From the NCBI GenBank assembly GCA_002471575.1, contig DKQG01000050.1:9813-73812 (forward strand): 64,000 nucleotides of DNA. Direction: 5' to 3'. A program made the translations under genes and the position numbers. The notes below the pieces were generated by a model, which did not search any database, had not been told where the DNA came from, and saw nothing but the letters and a program-made list of their open reading frames with translations. This stretch comes from Alphaproteobacteria bacterium UBA7314 (GTDB taxonomy: Bacteria; Pseudomonadota; Alphaproteobacteria; MPNO01; UBA830). Positions 40,425 to 64,000 of the stretch are shown here, one piece after another (within the stretch, counting starts at the first letter, position 1; each line of letters starts with the position of its first letter).

Positions 40425-41495
40425 TCAGTTCAGATTGTAGAAGCTGATCATGTTGTCATGAACCAGCTTGCACTTGATCTCGTTCGAGAACTCGTTGTTT
40501 TCCAGGAACTCGGGCAACTCTGTGGTGAGATCCTCCTCGGTCGGCTCGTGAGGGTAGTCCGACGCGTAGAGGATGCGGTCCGGGCCTATGGCGTCGATGG
40601 TGTATTTTAGGTTCCGCTCGCCGAGCTCCACGGCGACCCAGAAATTGTCCCCTTCGCGCAGATAGTCTGACGGGCGCTTTTTCAGCTTGGCCCGGCTGGC
40701 CGCCCCGAACACGGATTCGTATTCGTAATCCATGCGGTCCATCATGAATGGTACCCAGGTCGCGCCGCCTTCTAGGAAGGCAATCTTCAGCTTGGGGAAA
40801 GCATCCCACATGCCTGAGAACACGATGTCAGTCAGCTGCATCATCAGCGGGAACGGGTGTTCCAGCGTGTGCACCTTCACGAATTCGCGGAAATGGTTGA
40901 AACCCATGCCGCGGCTCGGCCCGCCGTGGATGGCTAGCGGCATGTTGTTCTTTTCCGCCGCCTCGAAGATCGGCCAGAAGAACTCGTCGCCGCAGGTTTT
41001 GCCCAGATAGGTCTGCGACGGCAGCATCATGGCGGGGAAGCGCACGCGCTCGTTGGCGCAGCGCTCGATCTCCTTCGCCGCCTCTTCCGGCACCTGCACC
41101 GGCACGATACCGGCGCCGTAGAGCCGTTCGTCCTTCGACGTGTAGCGGTCTTCCAGCCAGTTGTTGTAGGCCTTGATGGTCTCGACCACCCACTTGGGAT
41201 CCGAGATCAGCCCGGCCGCAAGACCCGCCGTCGGATAAAGCACCGTGCCGTCGGCACCGATTATGTCGAGCATCTCGGCCCACACATCGGCGTCGGTATG
41301 GGTATAGCGTCGGGGTTAGCAGTCGTTGGATGCCATGATGAAGCCGCGCGCCCACCCATCGAGGCTGGGCCAGACCCCAAAGGTCTTGAAGCGCTGCAGA
41401 TTGGCAAAATCGCCCTCAAAATATTCAGCGATCTCTTCATCGTTCTCGAGCACGTGCCCGTCGCCGTCAAAGACGTCGAATCCGTTGATAGCCAT
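40425..41495 (-). pseudogene. Amidohydrolase-2 family (ACMSD-like metal-dependent hydrolase/decarboxylase) gene interrupted by an in-frame TAA
   Basis: The C-terminal 286 codons (40425-41285) carry amidohydrolase-2 motifs (AIHGGP.., ..ILYASDYPHEP). An N-terminal 58-codon segment (41322-41495, MAINGFDVFDGDGHVLE..) is in the same frame. The two are separated by a single TAA at 41316-41318 on the minus strand. Confidence 0.6.
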
Positions 41496-41701
41496 CAGTC
41501 CCTCCCGGTTTTCATCGCGTTCCCTGCCCTAAATTCATGACCTCCACAGGCACCGAGTCAATGACGGTCCGGGAGGGTAAGAGGGCCGACGCCGAGACAA
41601 CGAATGTTCAGGCTTCTCCCCAAACAAGGGAGAAGGCGGATTTGGAAATCGCGTCCGGAAGGATATATGCTCTGGCAACAGTTTGACCGACCGAGGCGGC
41701 C

Positions 41702-42100
41702 ATGACCGAAAACACGCTCGATAATTTCGAAAACGGCGACGAGACCAAGATCAACTACTACCACGCCCATATCTATTACGGCGACGACGACGCTGTGCGC
41801 GAAACTGCGGCGCGACTGCGTGAAAAGGCGTGGAACAAATGGCCCGGCAAGGTGCGCATGGGCCGGTTCCGCGACAAGGCGGTCGGACCGCATCCGCTGG
41901 CCATGTACCAGATCGAGTTCGACCACGAGATCTTCGACGAGATCGTTCCCTGGCTGATGTACAACCGCGACGGCTTGACCATCCTGCTCCATCCCGACGC
42001 CGAAGACGCCTGGCGCGATCACGCCTGGTACCCGTTCTGGATGGGCGAAAAGCTGGACCTACGACTGAACTGGCTGGCGGCGGGCAACCGACAGGCTTAG
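41702..42100 (+). CDS. DOPA 4,5-dioxygenase-family protein (small aromatic ring-cleavage dioxygenase-like)
   Basis: 132 aa with the motif YHAHIYYGDDD..., which is characteristic of the approximately 110-130-aa DOPA-dioxygenase family. Confidence 0.6.
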   Translation: MTENTLDNFENGDETKINYYHAHIYYGDDDAVRETAARLREKAWNKWPGKVRMGRFRDKAVGPHPLAMYQIEFDHEIFDEIVPWLMYNRDGLTILLHPDAEDAWRDHAWYPFWMGEKLDLRLNWLAAGNRQA

Positions 42101-43338
42101 GGCGTATACCGCCTGAGCCGCTTCCAGATCAGCCACGCGGCGAGGCCGAGTACGACTTGCATGCCGATAACAGGGTACAGCGTTCCGTCATAGATCAGTC
42201 CCTGGGCAAGCGATACGGCAGCGGCCGCGCACATCTGCACGAAGCCGAGTACCGCCGCCGCCGCGCCCGCGGCTTTGGGGTGGGACATCATCACGCCTGC
42301 CGCCGTGTTAGGGGCCAGAAACCCGCCGCCGAACCAGAATACAAACTGGAGCGCGACGATAAGCGCGACTGGCAGCCACCCCGCCAGAGCCAGTCCGGTC
42401 AGCACGAGGGGCGGAAAAAACATTAGCGCGAGACTGACATGGATAACCTTCGCCGAGCCCCAGCGGGGAATCGCCGAGCGTGCGGCGAACGATCCTGTCA
42501 GAAAGCCCGACATGGCGAGGGCGGCGATTACGCCGTAGACGGAAGGCATCGTGCCCAGACTTTCGATGAAGTAGTACGGCCCGCCGGCGACGAAGCAATA
42601 GAGCCCCGCATAGCCGATCGAGTGGGTTAGCATGAAAGCGAGAAAGCCCTTGTGCCGGAACAGGCCCAGATAGACGATATGGACCTTCTGTGCTTCCGAC
42701 GCGGGGGCAACGGTACCGGTTTCGGGCAGGACGAAGAGTGTCGAGACGAGCCAGATCAGCGCGGCGGCACCGGCAAAAACGAACCCGGCGCGCCAGCTGG
42801 CAACGTCGATGAGCGCACCGCCGACCAGGGGAGCAGCCAGAAAAGAGGCGGCCATCAGAGCGAACAGCGCTGCCATGGCTTTCGGCGCGCCGTCCGCGCC
42901 GTAGATATCCCGAACGATGGCCCGCGACACGACGTACCCCGAAGCGCCGCCCAGCCCTTGGATGGCACGGCCCAGAACGATCACCCAGATACTGTCCGCC
43001 ATGGCAGCGATTGCCGACCCGGCCAAAGTGAGGACCGCCCCGATCAGCAGCGCGGTCCGGCGGCCGCGGCGGTCGGAGAACGGACCAAAGAACAACTGGC
43101 CCGACGCAAACATCACGGCAAAGGAAACAATGGTGAGCTGGATGGTCACGGGCGACCGCTGAAAAACGTCGCCCAGGGCCGGCATGGCGGGCACGATCAG
43201 CCCGGTCGCGACTTCTCCGAAAGACGTACAAAGAACCAGCGTCGCGAAAACCAGAACGCCGGCGCCCTCACGAGGGCGGGACACGAACTGGTTTTCGGAT
43301 TCTCGGGTCATGATGGGCAACCGATCCCGGAACCGCAT
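42097..43338 (-). CDS. MFS transporter (Bcr/CflA-like drug:H+ antiporter family)
   Basis: About 410 aa with 12 predicted TM segments and the MFS motif GPFSDRRGRRTALL after TM2. The start is ambiguous between 43338 and 43311. Confidence 0.85.
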   Translation of the reverse strand: MRFRDRLPIMTRESENQFVSRPREGAGVLVFATLVLCTSFGEVATGLIVPAMPALGDVFQRSPVTIQLTIVSFAVMFASGQLFFGPFSDRRGRRTALLIGAVLTLAGSAIAAMADSIWVIVLGRAIQGLGGASGYVVSRAIVRDIYGADGAPKAMAALFALMAASFLAAPLVGGALIDVASWRAGFVFAGAAALIWLVSTLFVLPETGTVAPASEAQKVHIVYLGLFRHKGFLAFMLTHSIGYAGLYCFVAGGPYYFIESLGTMPSVYGVIAALAMSGFLTGSFAARSAIPRWGSAKVIHVSLALMFFPPLVLTGLALAGWLPVALIVALQFVFWFGGGFLAPNTAAGVMMSHPKAAGAAAAVLGFVQMCAAAAVSLAQGLIYDGTLYPVIGMQVVLGLAAWLIWKRLRRYTP

Positions 43339-46550: not shown

Positions 46551-48869
46551 ATGCAATTTGGTGTTGGACAGCCCGTGCCGCGCACGGAGGATCCGAAATT
46601 TCTGATGGGCCAGGGACAGTATGTGGACGATATCCGTCTACCCTTTACGGCAATCGGCTATGTACTGCGGTCGCCCTATCCGCATGCGAAGGTCAACGGC
46701 GTCAACGCAGACGCGGCGAAGGAAGCGCCGGGCGTCGTATTGATCCTGACCGGCGCCGATGCGGAGGCGCAGGGTCTCGGCACGCTGCACTGCCACGTCC
46801 CTCCAATGGCGTTCGGCGGACCGCCTTCACCGACCCCGGCGCATCCGATCCTGGCGCGCGACCGGGTCCGTTGCGTCGGCGATCCCGTGGCATTTGTGGT
46901 GGCCGAAACGCTGGCCGAGGCCAAGGACGCCGCCGAGATGATCGAGGTCAATTACGAGGCCCTGCCAGCCGTCGGATCGACCCGTGCCGCGGTGAAAGAC
47001 GGTGCGCCACAGGTATGGGACGACAATCCCGGCAATCTGTGGTTCGAAATGGACCGCGGTGACGCCGATGCCACCGACGCCGCCTTCGCTAGAGCGGCAC
47101 ATGTGGTGAAAGCGGACCTGCACCACAACCGGATTTCCGCCAATGCCATGGAGCCGCGCGCGGCGCTGGCCGAATACAGCGCGGGCCGGCGCGAATGGAC
47201 GTGCTACATGTCGAGCCAAGGCACCCATCAGCACCGCCCGACTTTCGCCGAGATATTTCATCAACCAGCGACCGCGTTCCGGGTGATCGCGCCCGATGTG
47301 GGCGGAGGGTTCGGTATGAAAAACGGCGTCTTCCCGGAAGATGCACTGGTCGCCTGGGCCGCACGGGAGCTAGGACGGCCCGTCAAATGGACGGGGGACC
47401 GGTCTGAATCGCTGATCAGCGACACTCACGCCCGCGACGCCGAAACCGACAGCGAAATGGCGCTGGACGAGAACGGCAAGATTCTCGCCATCCGCGTGAA
47501 GGCGGATTACGGCGTCGGCGCCTATCTGTCCGCGTCAGCACCAGTACCGGCCTGCATCGGGTCGATGGTGTACCAGAACGTCTACGTATACGGCGCCATG
47601 CACATTCATATCCGCGTGGTTTTCAGCAATACCACCTGGACCGGCCCCTATCGCGGCGCCGGACGTCCGGAAGCGGTCTACGTGGTCGAACGGCTGCTCG
47701 ATATCGCCGCCGACGAGATGGGCATAGATCCGGTGGAAATCCGTCAGCGGAATTATATCACCGAGGAGAAGATGCCCTTCACCACGCTAATCCCGACGGT
47801 ATACGATTCCGGCGATTTTCCGGGGATCACGGATCATGCGGCGGACATCGCCGACATTCCCGGGTTCGAGGCGCGTAAGGCGGAAAGCGCTGCTCGCGGC
47901 AAGCTGCGAGGGCTGGGCACGTGTTCGTTCATTGATTTCGCATCGCCGTTCAACGACCGCATGGAAATCCGCTTCGACGATACCGGCTCGGTGACCGTGG
48001 TCGCGGGAACGCACAGCCACGGCCAGGGCCACCAGACGGTATATGCCCAGATGATCCACAGCTGGCTCGGCGTACCGTTCGAGAAGATTCGCCTTTTACA
48101 GGGTGATTCTGACAAGGTCACTTACGGTCGCGGCACCTACGGGTCGCGCTCAATGACCATAGGCGGTTCAGCGCTCCGGCTCGCCGCCGACAAGATCATC
48201 GACAAGGCGAGGAAGATCGCCGCCCACGTTCTCGAGGCAGCGGAGGAAGATATCGAGTTCGCCGACGGCAACCTGACCGTCGCCGGGACAGACAAGTCGA
48301 TGCATATCTGCGACATAGCGCCGATGTCCTATATGCCGATGGGTTGGCCGACGGAGCTGGGAATTGGGCTGGAAGCAGAAGCCACCTGGAACCCTGAAAC
48401 CGGCCCCAACTGGCCGAACGGCACCCACTTCACCGAGGTCGAGGTGGATCCCGATACCGGGTTCGTGGATCTGGTCCGCCACATCGCGGTCAACGATTCC
48501 GGCGAGGTGATCAACCCGCTGCTGCTGGCTGGCCAGGTCCATGGCGGCGTCGCCCAGGGGGTCGGACAGGCACTGATGGAAGACGTCACCTACGACTCCG
48601 ACGGCCAGATCCTGGCCGGGTCATTCCTAGACTATTGTATGCCCCGCGCCGACGACCTGCCGATGATCGAAACGTCGGACTTCGTGGCCGCCTGCCAGAC
48701 CAATCCGCTGGGCGTGAAAGGCGGCGGCGAATCCGGGACGGTGGGATCTATCGCGTCGACGGTAAACGCCATCGTCGATGCGCTTTCCGATTACGGCGTG
48801 ACCGATATCGACATGCCGGCGACGCCGCTGAAGGTGTGGCAGGCCATACAGCAAGGGACGACTGCCTGA
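46551..48869 (+). CDS. Molybdopterin-binding large subunit of a xanthine dehydrogenase / CO dehydrogenase-family enzyme (form-II CoxL-like), orphan
   Basis: 772 aa. The active-site loop GPYRGAGRPE is the AYRGAGR type that marks form-II CoxL homologues, not true CO dehydrogenases. Mo-hydroxylase a/b hammerhead and MPT-binding domains are present throughout. No CoxS or CoxM partner gene is adjacent. Confidence 0.85.
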   Translation: MQFGVGQPVPRTEDPKFLMGQGQYVDDIRLPFTAIGYVLRSPYPHAKVNGVNADAAKEAPGVVLILTGADAEAQGLGTLHCHVPPMAFGGPPSPTPAHPILARDRVRCVGDPVAFVVAETLAEAKDAAEMIEVNYEALPAVGSTRAAVKDGAPQVWDDNPGNLWFEMDRGDADATDAAFARAAHVVKADLHHNRISANAMEPRAALAEYSAGRREWTCYMSSQGTHQHRPTFAEIFHQPATAFRVIAPDVGGGFGMKNGVFPEDALVAWAARELGRPVKWTGDRSESLISDTHARDAETDSEMALDENGKILAIRVKADYGVGAYLSASAPVPACIGSMVYQNVYVYGAMHIHIRVVFSNTTWTGPYRGAGRPEAVYVVERLLDIAADEMGIDPVEIRQRNYITEEKMPFTTLIPTVYDSGDFPGITDHAADIADIPGFEARKAESAARGKLRGLGTCSFIDFASPFNDRMEIRFDDTGSVTVVAGTHSHGQGHQTVYAQMIHSWLGVPFEKIRLLQGDSDKVTYGRGTYGSRSMTIGGSALRLAADKIIDKARKIAAHVLEAAEEDIEFADGNLTVAGTDKSMHICDIAPMSYMPMGWPTELGIGLEAEATWNPETGPNWPNGTHFTEVEVDPDTGFVDLVRHIAVNDSGEVINPLLLAGQVHGGVAQGVGQALMEDVTYDSDGQILAGSFLDYCMPRADDLPMIETSDFVAACQTNPLGVKGGGESGTVGSIASTVNAIVDALSDYGVTDIDMPATPLKVWQAIQQGTTA

Positions 48870-50121: not shown

Positions 50122-50538
50122 TTGCCGTTTACCAATCGATATCAGACCCGCGCCGAATGGGCGGATTGCGACCCGCTGGGGCAAACGTTCTATCCGAACT
50201 ATTTCAGGTGGTTCGATATCGGCACGCACACGCTGCTGGATGCAGCGGGACACCCCTATGACGGGTTGATCGAGGAATACGGCCTGGCTGGCCTGCCGCT
50301 GGTTGATGCGCAGGCGTCGTTTCGCGACCGTTGCCGGTGGACGGACAACCTGGAAATCGAAAGTTTCATTTCCCGTTTCGGCAGCAAAAGCTTTACCGTG
50401 ACGCACAACATCTGGAACGGCGGCGACGTAGCTGTCGAGGGCAAGGAAGTTCGTATCTGGGGCCTGTTCGATCCGGAAGACGACACCAAACTTATGGCCG
50501 GCGAGATCCCGGAAGATTTCAAACAGATATTCGCGTAG
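50122..50538 (+). CDS. Hotdog-fold acyl-CoA thioesterase (4-hydroxybenzoyl-CoA thioesterase / YbgC-like)
   Basis: 138 aa with the pattern W.DCD..G..YPNYFRWFD.. typical of 4HBT-class thioesterases. The likely start is TTG. Confidence 0.7.
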   Translation: MPFTNRYQTRAEWADCDPLGQTFYPNYFRWFDIGTHTLLDAAGHPYDGLIEEYGLAGLPLVDAQASFRDRCRWTDNLEIESFISRFGSKSFTVTHNIWNGGDVAVEGKEVRIWGLFDPEDDTKLMAGEIPEDFKQIFA

Positions 50539-50549
50539 GCGGGACCTGC

Positions 50550-51020
50550 ATGGCGTCAAAAAAATCAAGCGCGCGTTCCAGCGACCGGCGGGGTGACATA
50601 GTTATGGGCATGCTGCCCGACCTGATCGGTTTCAACCTGCGATGCGCCCAGTTGGTGCTGTTCCAGCATTTCGGCGCTACAGTCGGACAGGACGGCATAT
50701 CCGTGCCCCAGTTCGGGACGCTGCTGTTGATCGAAGCCAACCCCGACATCAGCCAAAGCGCGATTGCCGAAGCGCTGCGTTTAGACCGGTCGACACTGGT
50801 ACAGATCATCGACCGGTTGGAAAATCGTGGGCTGGTGGTTCGGCACGTATCGCCGACTGACCGCCGGTCCCACGCGTTGCAGCTGACAGACGCGGGGTCG
50901 GAAACGCTGGCGGAACTGAAACAACGCACCGTCGAACACGAAGACGACGTCGCCTCGGCACTAAACGACGACGAACGCGCGCAGTTCATTTCACTGCTTA
51001 AGAGGCTGTACGGCGGCTAG
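50550..51020 (+). CDS. MarR-family transcriptional regulator
   Basis: 156 aa with a winged-helix region ISQSAIAEALRLDRSTLVQIIDRLENRGLVVRHVSPTDRRSHALQLT. The ORF-track start at 50331 overlaps the upstream gene out of frame, so I place the start at the ATG at 50550. Confidence 0.8.
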   Translation: MASKKSSARSSDRRGDIVMGMLPDLIGFNLRCAQLVLFQHFGATVGQDGISVPQFGTLLLIEANPDISQSAIAEALRLDRSTLVQIIDRLENRGLVVRHVSPTDRRSHALQLTDAGSETLAELKQRTVEHEDDVASALNDDERAQFISLLKRLYGG

Positions 51021-51100: not shown

Positions 51101-52153
51101 TTAACCCGTTTCGCCCTCGCGGAACAGACCGAGCTTCTGCTGCACTGGCTGATCGGTAAAGCTGAATAGGAACGAGTCTTCGTCAGCCTGGTGTTCGTGC
51201 TTGAACCAGGCGGGCACGACGAAGGTGTCCCTTGCCTTCCAGGTCATCTTCTGCCCGTTGATGATCGTGCTGCCGGATCCTTCGACACAGTGATACACCC
51301 AGGCTGCGGTCGTCTGGTACACATCGCCTGAGAAGCCATTGGGCAGCTTTTGCATATAGGTACCGACGGTCGGCATGACCGGCCCACCCGTCGTCGGGTT
51401 GATGTATTCGAGCTTGTAGCCGTGACGGGCATCGATATCGCCCGATTTTGACAAGGTATCCAGCGTGTCGCGCGTCTGGACGTAAGGATAATGGAACACT
51501 GGTGAATTTGCCGGTCCCGACGTTTCGCCGAACGGCCGCATATTGCCACCGTATCGCGCCATATTATCGCCCGACGGCCGTCCCTGCGGGAATTCGGATT
51601 CGGGATAGGGTTCGGCAAAGACCGGGCCGAGATGGCGGACAAGCGGGATGTCCAGCCCGTCGAGCCAGACAACCGGCACATCGCCATCATGGCCATGGTC
51701 GTGCCACACCCAGGATGGCGTCAGGATCAGATCGCCGACCTCCATATAGGCTTTTTCGCCGTTCAACGCGGTATAGGCGCCGGTTCCTTCGACGATAAAC
51801 CTCAGCGCACAAGGCGAATGTCGGTGCGCGGGTGCGACTTCGCCGGGCATGATCAGCTGCAGGCCGGCGTACAAGGCCTCGGTGATGCAAGATTTCTCTT
51901 CCAGTCCAGGGTTTTCGAGAACCATGACGCGACGCTCGGCTTCTTCCGCCGAGATGATATCGGCTGACTCCATGATATAGGGACGGCACAAATCATAATC
52001 CCATTTGTGCGGAACCGCGTCCGTCACCGGCGCTTCAGCCAGCAGCGTGTGCAATACTTCCCACAGCGGCGTCATCTTTTGTTCCGCCATGCGACCGTAA
52101 AAATCGGCGCGGGCGTTGGTCAATTCCGGTTTTTCGTGCAGGGCCCTGCTCAT
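51101..52153 (-). CDS. Gentisate 1,2-dioxygenase-like bicupin ring-cleavage dioxygenase
   Basis: 350 aa with two cupin domains. The first carries the gentisate-dioxygenase-type metal motif HRHSPCALRF, and the second has HDHGHDGD. The N-terminus MSRALHEKPELTNARADFYGRM is typical of the family. It is transcribed divergently from wecB and convergently with marR. Confidence 0.8.
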   Translation of the reverse strand: MSRALHEKPELTNARADFYGRMAEQKMTPLWEVLHTLLAEAPVTDAVPHKWDYDLCRPYIMESADIISAEEAERRVMVLENPGLEEKSCITEALYAGLQLIMPGEVAPAHRHSPCALRFIVEGTGAYTALNGEKAYMEVGDLILTPSWVWHDHGHDGDVPVVWLDGLDIPLVRHLGPVFAEPYPESEFPQGRPSGDNMARYGGNMRPFGETSGPANSPVFHYPYVQTRDTLDTLSKSGDIDARHGYKLEYINPTTGGPVMPTVGTYMQKLPNGFSGDVYQTTAAWVYHCVEGSGSTIINGQKMTWKARDTFVVPAWFKHEHQADEDSFLFSFTDQPVQQKLGLFREGETG

Positions 52154-55944: not shown

Positions 55945-57000
55945 CTATCCGGCGAAGACGGACATCACCTTTTCTCCGAACAGTCTGGTAGAGCGTTCGG
56001 CGTCTTCGTAGCTCATATCGCTGAAATTGACCTGCAGCGACGCATCGTCGAAACCGCCGATGTCAGACTCGTACGCCCGAATCCTCTCTATCAGGACCTC
56101 GGGCGTCCCGACCCATGCCGCACCCTTTTCCACCTGGGACTCAAATGTTTCTGCATCGAGAGCGGCAATCATCTTGCCATAGTTCTTGTAGGCATCGGAC
56201 TCCGCACCGTCGACCCAGCCACTGGCGGCATCGACTAGGGATTTGAGATACCGGTTGAGAGGATCGCGGGCGATCCGGGCCGCTTCTTCCGCATCTTCGT
56301 GACAGAACATGTGAAACGCCAGCATGATCCGGCCGTCACCGTCATGACCAGCGGATTTCCATGCTTCGCGATAGATACTGATCAGTTCGGCCATTGCCGA
56401 GCCGCCGATCGGGATCGCCATGATGTAATTGCCGATCCGTCCCGCTTTTTCGAAAGACTCGGGCGTCGTGAAGGCCGCAGTCCAGAAATTCGGTCGCGGC
56501 TTCTGAGATGGCCGGGGAAGCGAGGTTACGTTGCTGAACCTGTGGAACTGGCCGTCATGCGACACATTTTCGCCGGTCAACAGAAGTTCGATCTGTTCCA
56601 TGCCCTCGTCGAAACGCGCGACGCTTTCGTCAAGGGAGATCCCGAAGCGATCGTACTCGTGGGGCAGGAACGCCCGGGCGAAGCCGATTTCCGCACGACC
56701 GCCGGAAATCGCGTCCAGCATGCCGATCTCGCCGGCCAGTTTAAGCGGGTTGTTGAATACCGGCAGGACGGCCCCGGTCACGATCCGGGCGTTCTTGGCC
56801 CGCTGCGATGCTGCAGACAGGAAAACGATGGGGTTGGGGCTGTATCCGCCATAGGGATGGAAATAGTGCTCAACGGTTCTGATATGCGAGTAACCATACA
56901 CATCCGCCAGCTCGGTCAGACGCAGACATTCGTCGAAAAACTGTTGCCCCGATTTCTGATCCGGCCCCACAGCAGGGAAAAACTGCATTCCGAATTCCAC
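55945..57000 (-). CDS. Luciferase-like (LLM-class) flavin-dependent oxidoreductase
   Basis: 351 aa with a TIM-barrel LLM signature (MEFGMQFFPAVGP...YGYSHIRTVEHYF..). Confidence 0.85.
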   Translation of the reverse strand: MEFGMQFFPAVGPDQKSGQQFFDECLRLTELADVYGYSHIRTVEHYFHPYGGYSPNPIVFLSAASQRAKNARIVTGAVLPVFNNPLKLAGEIGMLDAISGGRAEIGFARAFLPHEYDRFGISLDESVARFDEGMEQIELLLTGENVSHDGQFHRFSNVTSLPRPSQKPRPNFWTAAFTTPESFEKAGRIGNYIMAIPIGGSAMAELISIYREAWKSAGHDGDGRIMLAFHMFCHEDAEEAARIARDPLNRYLKSLVDAASGWVDGAESDAYKNYGKMIAALDAETFESQVEKGAAWVGTPEVLIERIRAYESDIGGFDDASLQVNFSDMSYEDAERSTRLFGEKVMSVFAG

Positions 57001-57286
57001 GTCGACCTCCCGAAATATATTTATATCGCCCGATTTTTACACCGTACCCGCCGAACTCTAGGGGAACCAATATTCCGTGTACAGATTAATGATCCTCTCA
57101 CAAGATTGGGACCAAATTCCAACCGACGGAACGTGATTTGGAAAAATTGCTCGAAGACCAGCTGTAAGATTTTTCGCTGCAGAATGTGCCCGGGCGAGGA
57201 TCATGGCGGCCCTGCCCCGGAGGATTATGACCGGGTAATGAGAATACCAACCAAGCTGTCAGGGAGCGGCGGCTGATTAGACACGC

Positions 57287-58000
57287 TTGACCACCACCCT
57301 AAAACCCCACCATCAACCCATGGATAACGTGCTGTCATTGAATGTGGACATGTCCACCCTCGCGGTCGTCCGGTCCGCTGACATGGGCTGGCAGGCAAGC
57401 CTGTCTCCCACCGTGTGGCACAAGAGGCTTTACTTTGACGGGCCGGCAGAAGCGGCGATCGTCACATCCGTTGTTCGCTACGAAGCGGGCGGCGAATTTC
57501 CCACCCACCACCATCCGGGTGGCGAGGAAATCTTCGTTCTCGAAGGCGTTTTGTCAGATGAACACGGCGATTATCCGTCAGGTACGTACCTGTTAAACCC
57601 GGACGGCACCAGCCATGCGCCGTTTTCGAAGGACGGCTGCACGCTGTTCGTCAAGCTGCGCCAGTACGGTGGCGAGGGCCGCACCCAGGTAGAGATGAAT
57701 TCGGGCGCGCTGGACTGGCAGCCGTGGAACGACAGTGGCGTGTGGCAGAAACCGTTGTACCGGCAGGGCGGCTTCAGGGAATGGACGCAGCTGCTGAAGC
57801 TGGACCCGGGGGCGCAATCGCCACCTCATCAGCATCCGAACGGCGAAGAGGTGTTCGTGATCGACGGTGCAATCGAGGACGAATTCGGTGCTTACCCCGC
57901 CGGCACCTGGATCCGGTACCCGCCCGGATCGTCGCACACGGTAAAATCGCCAAAAGGTGCTATTCTGTATGTCCGGCTCGGAGGCATTGCGGAAAAATGA
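57287..58000 (+). CDS. Bicupin protein resembling the ChrR anti-sigma-factor cupin domain (tandem HHHPGGEE / HQHPNGEE cupin cores)
   Basis: About 230 aa with two repeated cupin units, each carrying the pattern H.HP.GEE..V..G. The start is probably the Met at 57320. Confidence 0.55.
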   Translation: MTTTLKPHHQPMDNVLSLNVDMSTLAVVRSADMGWQASLSPTVWHKRLYFDGPAEAAIVTSVVRYEAGGEFPTHHHPGGEEIFVLEGVLSDEHGDYPSGTYLLNPDGTSHAPFSKDGCTLFVKLRQYGGEGRTQVEMNSGALDWQPWNDSGVWQKPLYRQGGFREWTQLLKLDPGAQSPPHQHPNGEEVFVIDGAIEDEFGAYPAGTWIRYPPGSSHTVKSPKGAILYVRLGGIAEK

Positions 58001-58362
58001 CCGACACAATTATTCGTCACGACGACGTAGCGCAGGAGGAGTTTCCCGGCGGCGCAACCTACAGAACGCTGGTCGGTGACGATGACGGAACGACGCCCGT
58101 TAGATGCGGTATTCAGACATCGTCTCCTGGTTACGCGACGCCGAACCATGCGCACCCCTACGTGGAAATCGTCACCGTGCTGGAAGGTGCCGGAGAGGAC
58201 TGGGTCGACGGCCAGGACGGCACCACCGACATCGGACCAGGCATCACCATGGTATTTCCGCCGAACACCGCCCACGGCTTCCGCGTGACCGGCGACGCAC
58301 CGCTGGTGACCTACGGCGTGCATTCCTCCTCGGACCGGATCGTCGATATCAGAGAAAAATAG
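57997..58362 (+). CDS. Cupin-domain protein (121 aa)
   Basis: Cupin metal motifs are present (NHAHPYVEIVTVLEG ... PPNTAHGF). The ATG overlaps the upstream stop (ATGA). Confidence 0.6.
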   Translation: MTDTIIRHDDVAQEEFPGGATYRTLVGDDDGTTPVRCGIQTSSPGYATPNHAHPYVEIVTVLEGAGEDWVDGQDGTTDIGPGITMVFPPNTAHGFRVTGDAPLVTYGVHSSSDRIVDIREK

Positions 58363-58434
58363 TCCCCGCCCCGGCTGTCGCTAACCGTCAACGCCGCTTG
58401 TAGACAGCTCGCGTTAAATTTCCTCAAAAGTCCC

Positions 58435-59013
58435 CTAATCGGCGCCCACGTCCCCGGCACCCTTGCCTTCGCCAACACGGTGCAGCGGGCGACCAGAATC
58501 CGTCAGCGCGATTATTACGACAATTTCATCAGCTCGCGGCGCGTCAGCGAGCGAGACTTCCATCGCGTCGAAATGCGAAAACGTCCATACGTCTTCCTTG
58601 TGGTGCAGTGGGCAGTCGATCGCGGTGCCAGGACCTCCGACTTTTTTAGTCGAGGGAATAATCGATGGCGCCGGACCGACGATATCGCGCAAGGGCTTGC
58701 CCATGGTGGGATGCATGCAGGCGGCGCCGTGTTCCTTCTCGCCGTTCTCGCCTATGATGGCGGCCTTGCCAAAACTATGTACTTCTGCCGCGCTTATGCC
58801 GAGGGCGTTCATTGCGCAGCGGCCTAGAAGATCGCCCAGCTCGGCGCCGGCGGCCTCCAGTTCCGGCAGGTCATGCGAAAACCGGCCGGCATAGGGATTT
58901 TTGATCACGGCAACGGCGGCGCATTGCCGGCTGGGCGGATCGACCACTTCGCCGATTTCTATACGCGTTTCCTCGACGAGGGTGACGATTTTCCTAATCT
59001 CTGTGCCCGGCAT
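58435..59013 (-). CDS. DUF1185 / 'amino-acid synthesis' family protein
   Basis: 192 aa. The N-terminus MPGTEIRKIVTLVEETRIEIG and the overall length match this family of unknown function. Confidence 0.5.
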   Translation of the reverse strand: MPGTEIRKIVTLVEETRIEIGEVVDPPSRQCAAVAVIKNPYAGRFSHDLPELEAAGAELGDLLGRCAMNALGISAAEVHSFGKAAIIGENGEKEHGAACMHPTMGKPLRDIVGPAPSIIPSTKKVGGPGTAIDCPLHHKEDVWTFSHFDAMEVSLADAPRADEIVVIIALTDSGRPLHRVGEGKGAGDVGAD

Positions 59014-59090
59014 GTCTTGATCCCCTGCATGGCGCGGTTTCTCCTATTATGTCATAAACGGCTGAAGAATAATCGAGGAGTACAGGGCGC

Positions 59091-60497
59091 ATGGATCAGT
59101 CGATCCGGGGATATCTCGCCAATCTGGAACAGCAGGGCGAACTGGTGCGTTTTCGAAAGGAAGTGGACCCGCATGAAAACCTGACCGCTATCGGTTGGAA
59201 GACATTCGACCGGCTGGGAAAGGCGTCGCTGTTCGACAATCTGACCGGCTTTCCCGACTGGCAGGTCTGCAACCAGATCCTGATCGACCGCCGCAAATGG
59301 GGCATCGGCCTGGGCGTCGCAGAAGAAGACGTGATCGAGACGTTCAATACCCGCGTCAAATCGCCGATCGATCCGGAAATGGTCGACGCCGCCGGGGCGC
59401 CGGTAAAGGAAGTGATCCTGAAAGGCGATGAGGTCGACCTGACCAAAGTGCCAGCGGCGTGGACGTCGGAACTGGATCCCGGTCCTTTCATCGCGTCGGG
59501 CATGGCGATCATCAAGGACCCGGACACCGGTATCCGAAACATGTCAATCCATCGCCAGCAGATCATGGGCAAGAACCGTACCGGATATCTTATCTGCCCG
59601 CGCCAAGCATTGCGCATCTATCAGAAATACCAAGAACGGAACGAGCCCATGCCGGTGGCCATGGTCGTCGGCGCGCATCCGGCGATATATTTCTCGTCGT
59701 CCTACACCGCGCCTTACGGCACCGACGAACTGACCGTCGCCGGCGCGCTGATGGGCGAACCCGTCCGCATGGTAAAATGCGAGACCATCGATATCGAGGT
59801 CCCGGCCGAAGCTGAGATGATTCTCGAAGGCGAAATTCCACCCGATGCCCATACGCCGGAGGGTCCATTCGGCGAGGGGTCCGGCGGATACGCAATGGAG
59901 GGGTTCACCCAGTACTTGGATGTTAAATGCATCACCCGGCGCGAGAAACCGATCTTTTATGCGATGCAATGCGGTGCGCCGATGACGGACACCCAGGCAC
60001 TAGTCGCCACCGCGATCGACATGCTGCTGTGGGAACACCTGAAAAACGTCGAAGGCGGGCTCGACCTGCTCGATCTCCGCTGTCTCGGACTTGCCGGCAT
60101 GATGGCGGTCGTGGTCAAACTGCGTCCCCGGGTCGAGGGGCAGGCCAAGACTGCGCTGATGGCGGCGCTATCTGGCCCGCAGATGCACCCGAAACTCGCC
60201 ATCGCAGTTGACGAGGATATCGATGCGTCCGACATGCGCCAGGTATTCTGGTCGCTGACGACGCGGGTACATGCCGAGCGCGACGTCATCAAAATTCCTA
60301 ACGCCCGCACATGGTCGCTCGACAACGTGTCCGACATCGTGCCGGGACAAAGCGCCATGCACCGCATCGGCACAAAGACGATCATCGACGCCACCAAGCC
60401 GGCAGTGACCGATCCAGAGGGCCGCGAGCGCTTTACCATGGCGATGCCGAAAAACTACGACAGCGTCGATCTCGCCGATTTCTTACCTGATTCATGA
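59091..60497 (+). CDS. UbiD-family (prFMN-dependent) reversible aromatic-acid decarboxylase
   Basis: 468 aa with UbiD-family landmarks (..MSIHRQQIMGKNRTGY.., GEGSGGYAMEG.., the C-terminal ..SLTTRVHAERDV..). No ubiX or flavin prenyltransferase gene lies in the window. Confidence 0.85.
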   Translation: MDQSIRGYLANLEQQGELVRFRKEVDPHENLTAIGWKTFDRLGKASLFDNLTGFPDWQVCNQILIDRRKWGIGLGVAEEDVIETFNTRVKSPIDPEMVDAAGAPVKEVILKGDEVDLTKVPAAWTSELDPGPFIASGMAIIKDPDTGIRNMSIHRQQIMGKNRTGYLICPRQALRIYQKYQERNEPMPVAMVVGAHPAIYFSSSYTAPYGTDELTVAGALMGEPVRMVKCETIDIEVPAEAEMILEGEIPPDAHTPEGPFGEGSGGYAMEGFTQYLDVKCITRREKPIFYAMQCGAPMTDTQALVATAIDMLLWEHLKNVEGGLDLLDLRCLGLAGMMAVVVKLRPRVEGQAKTALMAALSGPQMHPKLAIAVDEDIDASDMRQVFWSLTTRVHAERDVIKIPNARTWSLDNVSDIVPGQSAMHRIGTKTIIDATKPAVTDPEGRERFTMAMPKNYDSVDLADFLPDS

Positions 60498-60616
60498 GCT
60501 GCTTAAGCAGATTTCACACCTGCCCTCTCCGCCTTCCGGCCGAACACGGGACGATCTTTATGGTTGTCTGGGAGCGGGAGCGGGGACCCGGCTACTCAAG
60601 ATAAAGGAGCCCGACC

Positions 60617-61090
60617 ATGTCCAAAAACGGCCCCGCGTTCGATCCGCTCGACGTCGAAGCCATCGAGCGCAATCCCTATCCACCACCCAACGATACCGTG
60701 TTAGCCGGTAAGGCACGCCGAGCGCTGGGCGATCCGAACGGGCTGACGAAGTTCGGTGTGAATCTGACCGAAATGGCACCGGGCTCGGTCTCGGCTCTGC
60801 GTCACTGGCATTCGGAAGAGGATGAATTCATCTTTATCACCGAAGGCACGCCGACGCTCGTCACCGGTACCGGCGAACAACTGCTGCGGGCCGGCATGTG
60901 TGCGTGTTTTCCGGCAGGGTCCGGCGATGCCCACCGGCTGGAAAACCGTAGCAACGCGGTCGTCCGCTACCTTGAGGTCGGCAACCGTTCGGTACGCGAA
61001 GACGTGCATTATCCCGACGATGACATGGTCATGAAGCGGGTCGCCGGCGAGGCGCCAACCTTCACCCGCGCGGACGGCTCGCCATATTGA
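60617..61090 (+). CDS. Cupin-domain protein (157 aa)
   Basis: A single cupin is present (LRHWHSEEDEFIFITEGTPTLV...GDAHRLEN). Confidence 0.6.
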   Translation: MSKNGPAFDPLDVEAIERNPYPPPNDTVLAGKARRALGDPNGLTKFGVNLTEMAPGSVSALRHWHSEEDEFIFITEGTPTLVTGTGEQLLRAGMCACFPAGSGDAHRLENRSNAVVRYLEVGNRSVREDVHYPDDDMVMKRVAGEAPTFTRADGSPY

Positions 61091-62019
61091 TACGGGTCGC
61101 CTTTGAGCGCATCGCGAATGTCGCGACCTGGCTGATGGCGGGGGCGCTGGTGGCCGGCTATGCCGCTCAGCCGGTCGCCGAATTTTTCGGGCCGTATATT
61201 TTGCATTCGATGGTGATCCTTCTGGCGATTGCCATGGTGCGTTTGGATGTGGATAAACTGCGCGGCTATATCCGCCGTCCGCGGGTACTGGCTGCGATCG
61301 TCATCGTCAACCTGATCGCCGCACCGCTGATGATGTGGTTCCTAATCCAGCCGCTGAACATTCCGCCGGGCCTCGAACAAGGGTTGTTCCTGATGGCAGC
61401 CGCGCCGATGATTAGCTCCGCCATCGCTATCGCGACTATTCTGGAACTAGACGCCGCCCTCGCCGTTGCCGCCATGGTAACGACCTACGCCGTGGTCCCC
61501 TTTACCCTGCCGACGCTGTCAGTCTGGTTGATCGGTTTCGACCTGGGGGTCAGCATCTGGGAGATGTTCATCCGACTGTTCGCCACGATCGCGGCGCCAG
61601 CGGCGCTAGCTTTTATCCTGCGGCGATGGGTTTTCGAGCGGGAAACGCTAGCCCGCAATGCCCGGGCAATCGACGGACTGGGCGTGGTATTTGTGATGAT
61701 TTTCTGTCTCGGCATCATGGACGGTATCGCCGCCTTTACGGAAGGACGGATCGACTACGTCATCTTGACGTTGATCGCTGCCTTTGCCGCCAACATCGCG
61801 ATGCAGGTGTTCGGTACGGTGCTGTTTCTGAAACTCGGCCGGCGCGAGGCGCTGACCATAGGTCTAGTGACCGGCAACACCAATCTCGGCCTCGTCATGG
61901 TGGTGTTGGCCGATAAGGCGTCACCGGAACTGATCGCCTATTTCGTTCTTGGCCAGGTGCCGATGTATTTTCTTCCTGTGGTGGCGCTGCCGATATATCG
62001 GCGGCTAATGAGGGCATGA
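61087..62019 (+). CDS. Polytopic membrane transporter, BASS / AEC-like fold (paralogue 1)
   Basis: 310 aa with about 10 TM segments, an internal repeat, and a ..GLVTGNTNLGLVMVVL.. motif. Its start overlaps the upstream stop (ATGA). Confidence 0.55.
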   Translation: MIRVAFERIANVATWLMAGALVAGYAAQPVAEFFGPYILHSMVILLAIAMVRLDVDKLRGYIRRPRVLAAIVIVNLIAAPLMMWFLIQPLNIPPGLEQGLFLMAAAPMISSAIAIATILELDAALAVAAMVTTYAVVPFTLPTLSVWLIGFDLGVSIWEMFIRLFATIAAPAALAFILRRWVFERETLARNARAIDGLGVVFVMIFCLGIMDGIAAFTEGRIDYVILTLIAAFAANIAMQVFGTVLFLKLGRREALTIGLVTGNTNLGLVMVVLADKASPELIAYFVLGQVPMYFLPVVALPIYRRLMRA

Positions 62020-62948
62020 TCTTATTTCGCGGTCTGGACTGGGTCGCCAAACGAGCGACCTGGTTCCTTGCGGCCGGAGTTTTCGGCGGCATCGCCTGGC
62101 AGCCGCTCGCCGACGCGCTGGCACCCTGGCTGGAAGCCCTGATCGTTATGAATCTGTCGCTTTCGATGATGCGCATCGAGCCAGCGGCGCTGAAGGATTA
62201 CTTCCGCCACCATTGGCTGATCACAGTTATTTTCATCTTTACCATGGGGATCACGCCGTTAATCCTGTGGGGTCTGACCGGGGCCGCCGGCATCGACGGG
62301 CCGTTGGGCGCGGGCATCGTGTTCCATGCGCTGGCCACGCCTATCATGTCGGCGCCTGCGCTGTGCGTCCTGTTCGGCCTCGACGCGGCGCTCGCCCTGA
62401 TCATCACGGTGCTGTCCTATGCGCTGGTGCCGTTCACGCTGCCGCCGCTCGCGCTTTGGCTGCTGGGGATCGAGCTGGACGTCACGGTGCTGGAACTTAT
62501 GTGGCGGCTGGGCCGGATTGTCGGCGGCAGCTTCCTAATAGCGGTGATCGCCCGATACGTTCTGAAGCCCGCATTCCTGCAGGCCCAGGCGTCGCGCATG
62601 GACGGCATCATGGTGCTCGGGATGGTCGGCGTGGCAGTGTCACTGATGTCGGGTCTGCCGGATTTCGCCGTCGCAAAGCCATCTTTCACCGCCTTCGTCA
62701 CCATAACCACTTTCATCGTGAATATCGGGCTACAGATTTTCGCGGCCTGCGTGTTCTGGCGCGTCGGCAGACGAGCGGCAGTAACCATCGGTCTCTTGAC
62801 CGGCAACACTAACGTGGCATTGGTGCTCGCGGCAGTCAGCGAAAGCGCGTCCTACGACCTGCTCGTCTACTTCGTAGTGGGGCAGTTTCCAATCTACATC
62901 CTCCCGCTGGTCGCGGTACCTATATACCGGCGGGTAGTGGCCACATAA
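62016..62948 (+). CDS. Polytopic membrane transporter, BASS / AEC-like fold (paralogue 2)
   Basis: 310 aa and clearly homologous to the preceding gene (shared blocks ..PLADALAPW.., ..TGNTNVALVLAAV.., the C-terminal ..PLVAVPIYRR..). Its start overlaps the paralogue-1 stop. Confidence 0.55.
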   Translation: MILFRGLDWVAKRATWFLAAGVFGGIAWQPLADALAPWLEALIVMNLSLSMMRIEPAALKDYFRHHWLITVIFIFTMGITPLILWGLTGAAGIDGPLGAGIVFHALATPIMSAPALCVLFGLDAALALIITVLSYALVPFTLPPLALWLLGIELDVTVLELMWRLGRIVGGSFLIAVIARYVLKPAFLQAQASRMDGIMVLGMVGVAVSLMSGLPDFAVAKPSFTAFVTITTFIVNIGLQIFAACVFWRVGRRAAVTIGLLTGNTNVALVLAAVSESASYDLLVYFVVGQFPIYILPLVAVPIYRRVVAT

Positions 62949-62983
62949 ATAAAAAAAGGCGGACCCGAAGGCCCGCCTTTTTT
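62948..62983. terminator. Bidirectional rho-independent terminator
   Basis: AAAAAAA-GGCGGACCCGAAGGCCCGCC-TTTTTT. A GC hairpin is flanked by an A-run and a T-run, sitting between the convergent transporter gene and the Rieske oxygenase gene. Confidence 0.7.
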
Positions 62984-63002
62984 AAATATTGGTGCGCGGA
63001 CG

Positions 63003-64000
63003 CTATTCCGCAGCAACCGCCATTTCGCCCCGCTCTTCCGCGATCTTGCGGTCGATCATGTTGCGGGCGGCAATGGAGCCGGCATCTTGGATCGTGTCGA
63101 TCGTCGGACGATCGTCCCAGTTCTCCTGCTGCTTGTTGAACACCTCCCAGTCCTGGTGAAAAGCCGTGAAGATCTGCTTGTAAGACATTTCGGTCATTTC
63201 CTCGGTGACCGGCTGACCTTCGACCTGATAAGCGTTGGACCAGAAGTAATGGGTCGTAGTTTCGGTTTCGGGCGTTACAAAGTTGAGGTTATGGAACCCG
63301 AACCCACCTTTCGGTACCGGCAGATCGATATCGGTAAAACCGAATTCCTTGCCCTCTGCGGCCCCTTCCGCGGCGCCGGTGAACAAGCGCACGGCGCCTG
63401 GCATCTGGAATTCTATAATCTGCCAGCGGTCGACGATGTCGTCTTCCGTCCAGCCACCCATCCTCTGATAGGTCGGTGCCGGATTCTGGCCGACAGTCCA
63501 GCGTGCAACCGTGACGCTGTCGTCGTCTTTCAGCGTGCGGATCTTGGCAGCCTCGGCGACGGCGGCATTGCCGATGGTCGATTTATGCACAAAGCCAAGA
63601 TGCGACAGGTCCAGCAGGTTGTCGATGATCAGCTTGTAATCGCATTTGACGTAGAAATACGTCCCCTTGTCGCCCCAATCGTCGTCGGTCTTCCAGGGAT
63701 AAGGAACGATCAGGTTTTCGTCGGCCAGCGCCGGATCGCCCATCCAGATCCAGATCCAGTTGTATTTCTCGACGATTGGATAAGTGCGGACCTGGGCCCC
63801 CGGCGGGATCGTAGTCTGGCCCGGCACATGCGTGCACTTGCCCGCCGCATCGAACTGAAGGCCGTGATAGTAGCATTCCAGCTTGTCGCCGACAATTTTG
63901 CCCTTCGACAGCGGCATTCGGCGGTGGCAGCAACGGTCTTCAAAGGCCTGCGGCGTACCGTCCTCCTTGCGCCAGAAGACAATGTTTTCATTGCAGATGG
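63003..64000 (-). CDS. Rieske non-haem-iron oxygenase alpha subunit (VanA / phthalate-dioxygenase-like family), 5' end beyond window
   Basis: Rieske motifs CCHRR...CYYHGLQFD are present; the first lies in the frame that continues upstream of the ORF-track start. The mononuclear-iron region ..LSHLGFVHK.. is present. The C-terminal 332 codons are in the window. Confidence 0.8.
   Translation of the reverse strand, partial: ICNENIVFWRKEDGTPQAFEDRCCHRRMPLSKGKIVGDKLECYYHGLQFDAAGKCTHVPGQTTIPPGAQVRTYPIVEKYNWIWIWMGDPALADENLIVPYPWKTDDDWGDKGTYFYVKCDYKLIIDNLLDLSHLGFVHKSTIGNAAVAEAAKIRTLKDDDSVTVARWTVGQNPAPTYQRMGGWTEDDIVDRWQIIEFQMPGAVRLFTGAAEGAAEGKEFGFTDIDLPVPKGGFGFHNLNFVTPETETTTHYFWSNAYQVEGQPVTEEMTEMSYKQIFTAFHQDWEVFNKQQENWDDRPTIDTIQDAGSIAARNMIDRKIAEERGEMAVAAE

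Follow-up and report, generated by a model that had tools for sequence, protein, structure and literature searches.

Which of the nine genes at the right-hand end of this stretch of alphaproteobacterial DNA work together, and on what? The stretch, which we call the window, comprises 64,000 nucleotides (nt) of contig DKQG01000050.1 from Alphaproteobacteria bacterium UBA7314, and a preliminary description had read the genes from position 55,945 onwards, which surround a gene for a UbiD-family decarboxylase, as one functional module. The reading that we prefer, with a probability of roughly one half, is that the nine genes belong to several small transcription units, patched together in a flexible chromosomal region of an uncultured marine alphaproteobacterium, with a regulated operon of UbiD, a cupin and permeases as the core, serving the import and decarboxylation of an aromatic acid. 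This core operon (59091-62948), which encodes UbiD, a 157-amino-acid monocupin that we call cupin3 (60617-61090) and a pair of SBF/BASS permeases, is the one solid unit among the nine genes. The Rieske oxygenase gene at 63003-64000, which we call VanA-type, a nearby gentisate 1,2-dioxygenase (GDO) gene, a bicupin gene paired with a small cupin gene and a luciferase-like monooxygenase (LLM) gene are separate, individually dispensable units.

For the proteins of the window, families were assigned by Pfam and NCBIfam profile searches and by sequence matches in the PDB. We compared gene neighbourhoods in a scan with one genome per species, which gave 34 related loci; almost all of these stem from alphaproteobacterial metagenome-assembled genomes (MAGs) of marine or sponge origin. 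Look-ups of UbiD and cupin3 homologues brought the comparison set to about 45 related loci, from MAGs or metagenomes of uncultured marine Alphaproteobacteria; every related genome locus recovered was MAG-derived. The nine family assignments of the preliminary description are borne out at the coordinates given there, by Pfam and, for permease 2, by an identity of 36% with permease 1. Three overlaps of 4 nt between genes are also real (ATGA at 57997, between the bicupin and small cupin genes; TTGA at 61087, between cupin3 and permease 1; ATGA at 62016, between the two permeases). The preliminary description had left the strand of the LLM gene, which is minus, unstated. Coordinates of all features are collected in Table 1.

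Within the core operon, a good ribosome-binding site lies ahead of cupin3, and cupin3, permease 1 and permease 2 appear to be translationally coupled. The two transporters were described as paralogues with about ten transmembrane segments each, and this holds: they are 36% identical (5e-63) and each has 9-10 hydropathy peaks, in line with the ten-helix core of BASS/SBF proteins. Permease 1 has weak PanS/BASS matches in NCBIfam, and the Pfam search gave no match for permease 2 (62016-62948). The metal site of cupin3, formed by three His and one Glu, is invariant, and the closest solved relative is 3i7d (SPO2919), a structural-genomics entry without an assigned function. All three cupins of the cluster (bicupin, small cupin and cupin3) keep their HxH...E metal motifs.

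In the divergent promoter region between the DUF1185 and UbiD genes, we found a conserved palindrome that is the sole match with at most one mismatch in the 64-kb window. Its equivalent promoter position is kept in more than 10 relatives; its start lies 45-83 nt upstream of the UbiD start in loci L001, L002, L006-L009, L011, L030, L125 and L126, and loci of 12-21 kb from most close relatives contain no further match (in L011 there is a second, weaker one). In L003, L033 and L127, where another gene is inserted, the palindrome adjoins the DUF1185 start, and in L041, which has no UbiD gene, it lies upstream of cupin3. The palindrome is probably an operator common to the operon and the divergent DUF1185 gene. 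Given its position in L041, the operon is a single regulated unit whose leading gene, UbiD, is optional. At the other end, the predicted bidirectional terminator appears strong, and would close the operon and separate it from the convergent VanA-type gene. A sigma-70 promoter scan gave fewer matches than shuffled controls. The literature that could be searched does not describe the UbiD-cupin pairing or the BASS permease pair.

The UbiD enzyme has the three-domain architecture of its family (UbiD_N 43 bits, the Rift-related, cofactor-binding UbiD domain 214 bits and UbiD_C 74 bits in Pfam, each over its cutoff). That it does not group with canonical UbiD, as the preliminary proposal needed, is clear from the equivalog model NF008175/PRK10922, for which it scores 189 bits against a cutoff of 788. 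It also falls short of the menaquinone-type model TIGR03701 (207 against 496), the VdcC model NF041204 (280 against 650) and the phenylphosphate carboxylase model, and the sole NCBIfam model that it reaches is the generic subfamily model TIGR00148 (287 bits, cutoff 245). PtHmfF (6h6v; PMC8988006) is its best solved relative at 238 bits, followed by VdcC (7ae4) at 179 bits and E. coli UbiD at 176 bits. Residues N150 and R155 (in RNMSIHRQQ), H196 (GAHPA), E213 (TDELT) and E257/E262 (EGPFGE) align with their counterparts in HmfF, VdcC and E. coli UbiD, and are unchanged in 15 clade members of 67-98% identity. In line with the Fdc1 and UbiD structures, we take these motifs to supply metal and phosphate ligands and the E-R-E network. 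Because the metal and catalytic residues are conserved across the clade, the enzyme looks catalytically competent. Its placement in a non-canonical, catabolic-type, uncharacterised subfamily of a known family is supported by these comparisons, and its genes stand in a catabolic setting of a familiar sort.

The UbiD clade is abundant in ocean metagenomes, where several 90%-identity clusters have more than 100 member sequences, and it is present in Tara Oceans and 'MarineAlpha11' MAGs. In a plasmid collection searched by tblastn, the best match to UbiD was only 34% identical, so that this collection has no close annotated relative; the plasmid-borne homologues, of which those of Azospirillum were best, are probably HmfF-type. 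Three proteins of about 800 amino acids (P0113, P0116 and P0117) carry a complete UbiD, with 59-61% identity to that of the window, fused to a second, N-terminally degenerate UbiD-like half, which may be a built-in pseudo-subunit. We considered these fusions as Rosetta-stone links to a partner and rejected them, since the second half is a degenerate UbiD and is silent on partners.

Comparison with the relatives shows which genes travel together. In relatives with UbiD of at least 85% identity, the constant part is UbiD-cupin3-SBF, usually with both SBF genes, and all else varies. The SBF pair is kept together in most relatives, and L004 retains permease 2 only. L002 and L004 are without the bicupin pair, L125 and L126 contain an inserted gene for a phenol hydroxylase of HpaB type, and L127 has gained methyltransferase, Wzy_C and PEMT genes; across the relatives, insertions at the locus include Wzy_C, PEMT, Methyltransf_21, an epimerase-VKOR fusion, HpaB and TAXI-TRAP genes. 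UbiD and cupin3 are adjacent in three independent contexts: with the SBF pair, with DctPQM (L039, UbiD 79% identical) and alone (L017). In L017 (9995-11908), UbiD (73%) and cupin3 (58%) make up a unit of their own, surrounded by housekeeping genes (Lon-like protease, Usp, Asd and LeuB). This unit is a hint, the cleanest that we found, that UbiD and cupin3 work together. L021/L042 and L026, with a UbiD of just 67-68% identity, group it with a GDO-like bicupin, a VanA-type orthologue (85%) and the SBF pair in a single island whose gene order differs, and in L042 cupin3 is seen with the UbiD/VanA-type/SBF island. MarR regulators and TAXI-TRAP, DctPQM and SBF carboxylate transporters recur in the relatives.

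Other UbiD orthologues have nitrile hydratase, amidase, ring-hydroxylating Rieske oxygenases, glyoxalase-fold dioxygenases and Amdase-like proteins as neighbours, most of which fit carboxylate-generating or aromatic-catabolic chemistry. Orthologues of 63-77% identity stand beside nitrile hydratase alpha/beta genes (L020, L026, L040) or beside an amidase and an OpuAC-type ABC transporter (L010, L012-L015). A route from nitrile to amide to acid to decarboxylation would be chemically coherent.

Taken together, the conserved palindrome, the UbiD-cupin3 adjacency in three contexts and the clustering despite rearrangement suggest that some of these genes work together, and the aromatic theme comes from the aryl O-demethylase-like VanA-type enzyme, the gentisate dioxygenase, GDO-like bicupins, HpaB and MarR with carboxylate transporters. 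In the pathway that we propose, the permeases would import an aromatic or heteroaromatic carboxylate, perhaps hydroxylated, methoxylated or a dicarboxylate, both the substrate class and the direction of transport being presumed. UbiD would then remove the carboxyl group non-oxidatively with prenylated flavin mononucleotide (prFMN), presumably supplied by a ubiX gene encoded elsewhere; its competence is judged from its conserved residues only. Cupin3 would perform a metal-dependent step on the product or the substrate, which could be oxygenation, ring cleavage or isomerisation. Control would act through the palindromic operator that the operon shares with the divergent DUF1185 gene, and the VanA-type monooxygenase and gentisate 1,2-dioxygenase could plausibly provide peripheral and ring-cleavage steps. 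The catabolic aromatic-acid route of the preliminary description thus survives in part: a non-canonical UbiD shares its operon with a small cupin and two transporters, and an aryl-O-demethylase-like VanA-type gene recurs nearby, but one module of all nine genes is not supported.

Several observations weigh against this reading, and we place them side by side here. A relative with a 98%-identical UbiD lacks DUF1185, the VanA-type gene and RidA, and has MarR and TAXI-TRAP genes upstream of its bicupin pair. L041 has, in order, TAXI-TRAP, bicupin, small cupin, DUF1185 (minus strand), cupin3, SBF, SBF, VanA-type (minus strand), RidA and GMC oxidoreductase genes and no UbiD. With UbiD, DUF1185, the VanA-type gene and RidA each lost in some relative, none of the links is obligatory. 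Cupin3 homologues occur mostly without UbiD, in 4 of 7 contexts sampled via cupin3 and in about 76 of 80 distant metagenome loci. A VanB-type reductase (ferredoxin-reductase / 2Fe-2S) was not found among the Pfam-annotated genes of L035, L041 and L125-L127, and may be encoded elsewhere. His296 of PtHmfF (H296/H297) aligns to Thr in the UbiD loop GAPMTDTQAL, which has no His within about 10 residues; H296/H297 sets furan specificity in PtHmfF (PMC7976604). The synteny comes mostly from one group of related MAGs, and shared ancestry explains a good part of it. The reading is drawn from sequence and gene context, which suggest a class of substrate and no single compound. The first two of these observations also speak against a single module of nine genes, together with three others: in relatives the bicupin pair is the tail of a TAXI-TRAP operon, the LLM gene goes with the left flank and the VanA-type gene lies beyond the terminator.

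No ubiX-like sequence was found by tblastn anywhere in the 64-kb window, and none within about 10 kb in 33 of the 34 related loci. The query, E. coli UbiX, proved sound by its match of 57% identity in L032; this locus, with a 41%-identical Ramlibacter gene, is the sole exception. The UbiD clade is consistently unlinked from ubiX. The preliminary description was right that ubiX is missing here, but this is not unusual: ubiD and ubiX are also unlinked among the ubiquinone genes of E. coli, and because ubiquinone-producing proteobacteria keep ubiX elsewhere in the genome, its local absence is not anomalous.

Table 1. Features of the core operon and of the separate units around it (window positions; strand left blank for elements without one).
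Feature	Position	Strand	Evidence and remarks
UbiD-family (prFMN-dependent) decarboxylase, HmfF/VdcC/UbiD branch	59091..60497	+	Pfam, NCBIfam, PDB; first gene of core operon
Cupin3, monocupin with 3-His/1-Glu metal site	60617..61090	+	Pfam Cupin_2; second operon gene
SBF/BASS-fold permease 1	61087..62019	+	Pfam SBF 53.8 bits, cutoff 24.3; ten hydropathy peaks
SBF/BASS-fold permease 2, paralogue of permease 1	62016..62948	+	36% identity over 302 residues, 5e-63; last operon gene
Conserved palindrome ATTATGTCATAAA, consensus ATTATGNCATGAT	59046..59058		Starts 45 nt upstream of UbiD ATG, in divergent DUF1185/UbiD promoter region
Bidirectional intrinsic terminator (predicted) AAAAAAGGCGGGCCTTCGGGTCCGCCTTTTTT	62952..62983		14-bp stem, 7 G-C pairs, A and T runs on flanks
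DUF1185/AA_synth protein	58435..59013	-	Pfam 1e-68; divergent from operator region
ChrR-like bicupin, two Cupin_7 domains	57287..58000	+	Pfam 2.5e-55
Small Cupin_2 protein, 121 amino acids	57997..58362	+	Pfam; ATGA overlap with bicupin at 57997
Luciferase-like monooxygenase, flavin mononucleotide type (LLM)	55945..57000	-	Pfam Bac_luciferase 6e-57
VanA-type (phthalate-family) Rieske monooxygenase	63003..64000	-	Pfam Rieske 69 bits, VanA_C 136 bits; convergent separate unit
MarR regulator	50331..51020	+	Pfam
Gentisate 1,2-dioxygenase, bicupin	51101..52153	-	1e-118 to PDB 2d40, 3e-61 to 3bu7; HRH at residues 110-112

The DUF1185 gene is present in most close relatives and absent in L001 and L009. 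Its product matches profile PF06684 over its full length (231 bits, positions 1-175 of 175) and PDB 2qtp (SPO0826) at 1e-61. We found no established biochemical function for the DUF1185/AA_synth family (PF06684) in the literature searched, where the only functional report is that of TgnF: this DUF1185 protein is reported to stimulate an aldehyde dehydrogenase, whereas no effect was detected for HcdD, which is encoded beside a cupin in a coumarin operon (PMC7913881). In L044 (835-9150), a DUF1185 gene of 68% identity diverges from an operon that encodes hydantoinase B, B and A, a cupin3-like protein, EamA and an Amdase-like protein; the combination of DUF1185, a cupin3-like gene and a transporter thus reappears with another enzyme family.

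The bicupin and small cupin form a second unit. The true start of the bicupin is probably the ATG at 57320, because the relatives encode proteins of 221-227 amino acids. It carries the motifs HHHPGGEE and HQHPNGEE and matches PDB 3o14, a structural-genomics entry without an assigned function, at 2e-35. Against the ChrR model TIGR02451 it scores 52 bits (cutoff 124.5) over model positions 118-187, the cupin part only; the ChrR N-terminal zinc-binding anti-sigma domain was not found in the protein, nor a sigma-factor gene beside it, which places it outside the ChrR group proper. The small cupin has the motif HAHPYVE and weak PDB matches to RemF cyclase and 5-nitrosalicylate 1,2-dioxygenase. In the relatives, the two genes are the tail of a TAXI-TRAP operon, with the bicupin as third gene after TAXI-DctM; the TAXI-TRAP part is missing in the window, which seems to have kept only the tail. 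The LLM, whose nearest NCBIfam model is the MupA/Atu3671 LLM (under cutoff), adjoins the NAD-epimerase gene of the left flank in 10 of the 10 loci that show both, on the far side of the variable insert. Because it behaves as part of this conserved left flank, its membership in the pathway is doubtful.

The VanA-type protein loses about 24 residues of its N-terminus to the window end and keeps the first Rieske CxH motif. It has the CCH and CYYH Rieske ligands and the iron motif DNLLDLSHLGFVH, as expected of its family. Its best PDB matches, at about 1e-37, are DdmC (3gb4, dicamba O-demethylase) and GdmA (7qwt), which we take to be guaiacol O-demethylase; the betaine/carnitine enzymes Stc2 and CntA are not among its PDB matches at E <= 1e-5. 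By these matches the monooxygenase appears aryl-O-demethylase-like. Orthologues of 85-93% identity adjoin the SBF pair in most relatives, one of them with a three-gene insertion between, and the gene is absent in L001, L007 and L009. Past the VanA-type position, in a region that the window does not reach, close relatives (L035, 13922-20055) have genes for a GMC oxidoreductase, an SDR, two Mem_trans/AEC permeases, a rhomboid protease and another MarR, to which some add RidA.

The gentisate 1,2-dioxygenase is a fourth cupin-fold gene, located 4 kb upstream of the nine-gene cluster and 7 kb upstream of the core operon, and its similarity to solved enzymes and its HRH motif mark it as a member of that family. 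Two sugar-epimerase genes stand between it and the LLM gene. It is syntenic with MarR in L002, L004-L006, L030 and L034, and the two genes are a possible ring-cleavage arm. In distant genomes, the UbiD orthologue has a GDO-like bicupin gene shortly downstream, in some cases with a MarR gene ahead of it, and next comes a DHDPS-family gene.

GC content is even across the wider region (0.57-0.61), and because of this homogeneity it is not a recent foreign insertion. tRNA, repeat and Rfam scans of 49-64 kb found no tRNA genes, mobile-element repeats or Rfam families marking the region; a weak SorY match is the terminator hairpin described above. A 27-nt direct repeat, 85% identical between 51435-51461 (inside the gentisate dioxygenase gene) and 57023-57049 (between the LLM and bicupin genes), is probably due to chance. 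Housekeeping genes (LeuB/C, Ffh, FtsY, DapF and S16) occupy 32-46 kb, and an Amidohydro_2-family gene with an MFS transporter gene lies at 40425-43338; the Amidohydro_2 family includes non-oxidative aromatic decarboxylases. A molybdenum-hydroxylase large-subunit gene at 46551-48869 stands alone, in that no small-subunit or flavin adenine dinucleotide (FAD)-subunit genes were found beside it.

UbiD might be a passenger at the head of an operon in some lineages, into which it was inserted, and the true unit might be cupin3-SBF-SBF with convergent VanA-type, RidA and GMC oxidoreductase genes, acting on a small polar, possibly N-methylated marine metabolite. L041 keeps the full layout without UbiD, and L042 has the order PhyH-PhyH-cupin3-SBF-SBF with a VanA-type gene and two TauD genes while its UbiD lies about 7 kb off; RidA and GMC oxidoreductase are also conserved downstream, and UbiD orthologues of 77% identity are found beside an OpuAC-type ABC transporter and amidase. 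However, UbiD is the first operon gene under the common conserved operator, its adjacency to cupin3 survives both a change of transporter (L039) and the lack of one (L017), and the VanA-type enzyme matches aryl O-demethylases rather than Stc2 or CntA. We regard a passenger UbiD as unlikely.

The genes could also have no common function, with a flexible region collecting unrelated accessory genes and conservation reflecting inherited synteny. The many unrelated insertions at the locus in the relatives, the sugar epimerases between gentisate dioxygenase and LLM and the loss of each unit in at least one relative would all be expected in that case; translational coupling, the common operator and the re-clustering of the same families in rearranged orders where UbiD is only 67-68% identical would not, and we consider this explanation distinctly unlikely.

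The adjacency of UbiD and cupin3 could be taken further than we take it. The cupins of about 158 amino acids with a 3-His/1-Glu site, of the SPO2919 (3i7d) type, might be dedicated UbiD partners that capture or oxygenate the product or act on prFMN, so that UbiD-cupin-BASS with DUF1185 would be an undescribed two-enzyme decarboxylation system, used by abundant uncultured marine Alphaproteobacteria on a common ocean metabolite. This could be, for instance, a heteroaromatic acid set free from nitriles or amides, to which the nitrile-hydratase and amidase neighbours of the UbiD orthologues point; capture of the decarboxylated product by the cupin would pull the reversible reaction forward. This is a speculative extension to which we give only a slim chance.

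We consider it improbable that the small cupins, DUF1185 or both are accessory factors of UbiD (for cofactor maturation, as chaperones or as regulatory subunits) and not pathway enzymes. Dedicated prFMN helpers such as LpdD and PhdC/YclD exist, and the UbiD-cupin3 adjacency in three contexts would suit such a role. Yet PhdC/YclD are HpaC-like flavin reductases and not cupins, cupin3 retains a full metal site of catalytic type, and the one reported effect of a DUF1185 protein that we found is that of TgnF on an aldehyde dehydrogenase, with none detected for HcdD. Cupin3 is also widespread without UbiD nearby, which weakens the suggestion of the preliminary description that the cupins are UbiD chaperones. 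Among the 80 distant cupin3 metagenome loci, SBF, VanA-type and DUF1185 homologues were found in none and canonical-type ubiD in four, from one lineage. In these four soil contigs (L073, L078, L084 and L085), a canonical ubiD of the E. coli type is followed, two genes further downstream, by a cupin3-like gene (47-53%); an opposite-strand open reading frame of 99 amino acids stands between, and the contigs, 78-83% identical, count as one lineage. This arrangement would favour an accessory role, but it comes from one lineage only, and there a gene on the opposite strand intervenes.

That UbiD is a true HmfF, a 2,5-furandicarboxylate decarboxylase, is very improbable: PtHmfF is its best solved relative and JGI automatically names clade members '2,5-furandicarboxylate decarboxylase 1', but that name is unlikely to be correct because Thr takes the place of the HmfF specificity His and no other His is close by, the plasmid-borne, probably HmfF-type homologues are only about 33% identical by tblastn, hmfG/ubiX is not adjacent and hmfABCDE-like genes were not found in any related locus.

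Two described pathways were considered and rejected. The lumazine/pterin pathway with its xanthine-8-carboxylate decarboxylase (PMC12391406) was considered for the upstream molybdenum hydroxylase and the orthologue-adjacent amidase; in that pathway the isomerase belongs to the amidohydrolase-2 family, so the amidase is not the pathway isomerase, a ubiX-type gene is adjacent and the decarboxylase is distant from known UbiDs (PMC12391406). Homarine catabolism (homABCDER) was rejected as PMC13236597 does not mention UbiD, cupin, Rieske or DUF1185 proteins.

Few UbiD-family enzymes are characterised, and the family is of interest for reversible (de)carboxylation chemistry. With its substrate identified, the operon would contribute a further step to the marine cycle of dissolved organic carbon, and the partnership of a small cupin with UbiD would be put to the test. 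The hmf furan pathway (PtHmfF, C. basilensis HmfF) is alike in the UbiD branch, with a full-length match of 238 bits and the same prFMN/Mn-binding and E-R-E residues, and in a catabolic role on a carboxylate. In contrast, hmfF is genomically associated with hmfG (ubiX-type) and the furoate genes hmfABCDE (PMC8091172), whereas the window UbiD lacks the furan-specificity His, the hmfG/ubiX, hmfABCDE and hmfH context was not found and the partners are a cupin and BASS-type permeases. The hydroxyarylic acid decarboxylases VdcBCD/LpdBCD, which act on vanillate and protocatechuate, are alike as UbiD-family phenolic-acid decarboxylases, VdcC being the second-best solved match (179 bits; VdcC model score 280). 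They differ in that the window UbiD is far under the VdcC cutoff of 650, no UbiX-type B gene is adjacent and no short open reading frame fit for a D subunit was called beside it, the flanks being DUF1185 and a cupin.

In lignin-biphenyl degraders, 5-carboxyvanillate is converted to vanillate by the decarboxylase LigW and then to protocatechuate by an O-demethylase. The logic would be alike: decarboxylation of an aromatic (di)carboxylate, VanA-type O-demethylation and ring cleavage. LigW, however, has an amidohydrolase fold and is not a UbiD, and the ring-cleavage enzyme of the window is gentisate-type and not protocatechuate-type. The hcd operon for 7-hydroxycoumarin (Pseudomonas mandelii 7HK4) and the tgn cluster for trigonelline (Acinetobacter baylyi ADP1) share with our locus an aromatic or N-heteroaromatic catabolism with a DUF1185 protein (HcdD, TgnF), and hcd contains the small cupin HcdF (PMC7913881); neither has UbiD or BASS permeases. 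Compared with tgn, no aldehyde dehydrogenase is encoded beside the DUF1185 gene of the window. Set beside these systems, the locus offers a well-defined operon and a candidate operator, which require no new mechanism and make up no new kind of system.

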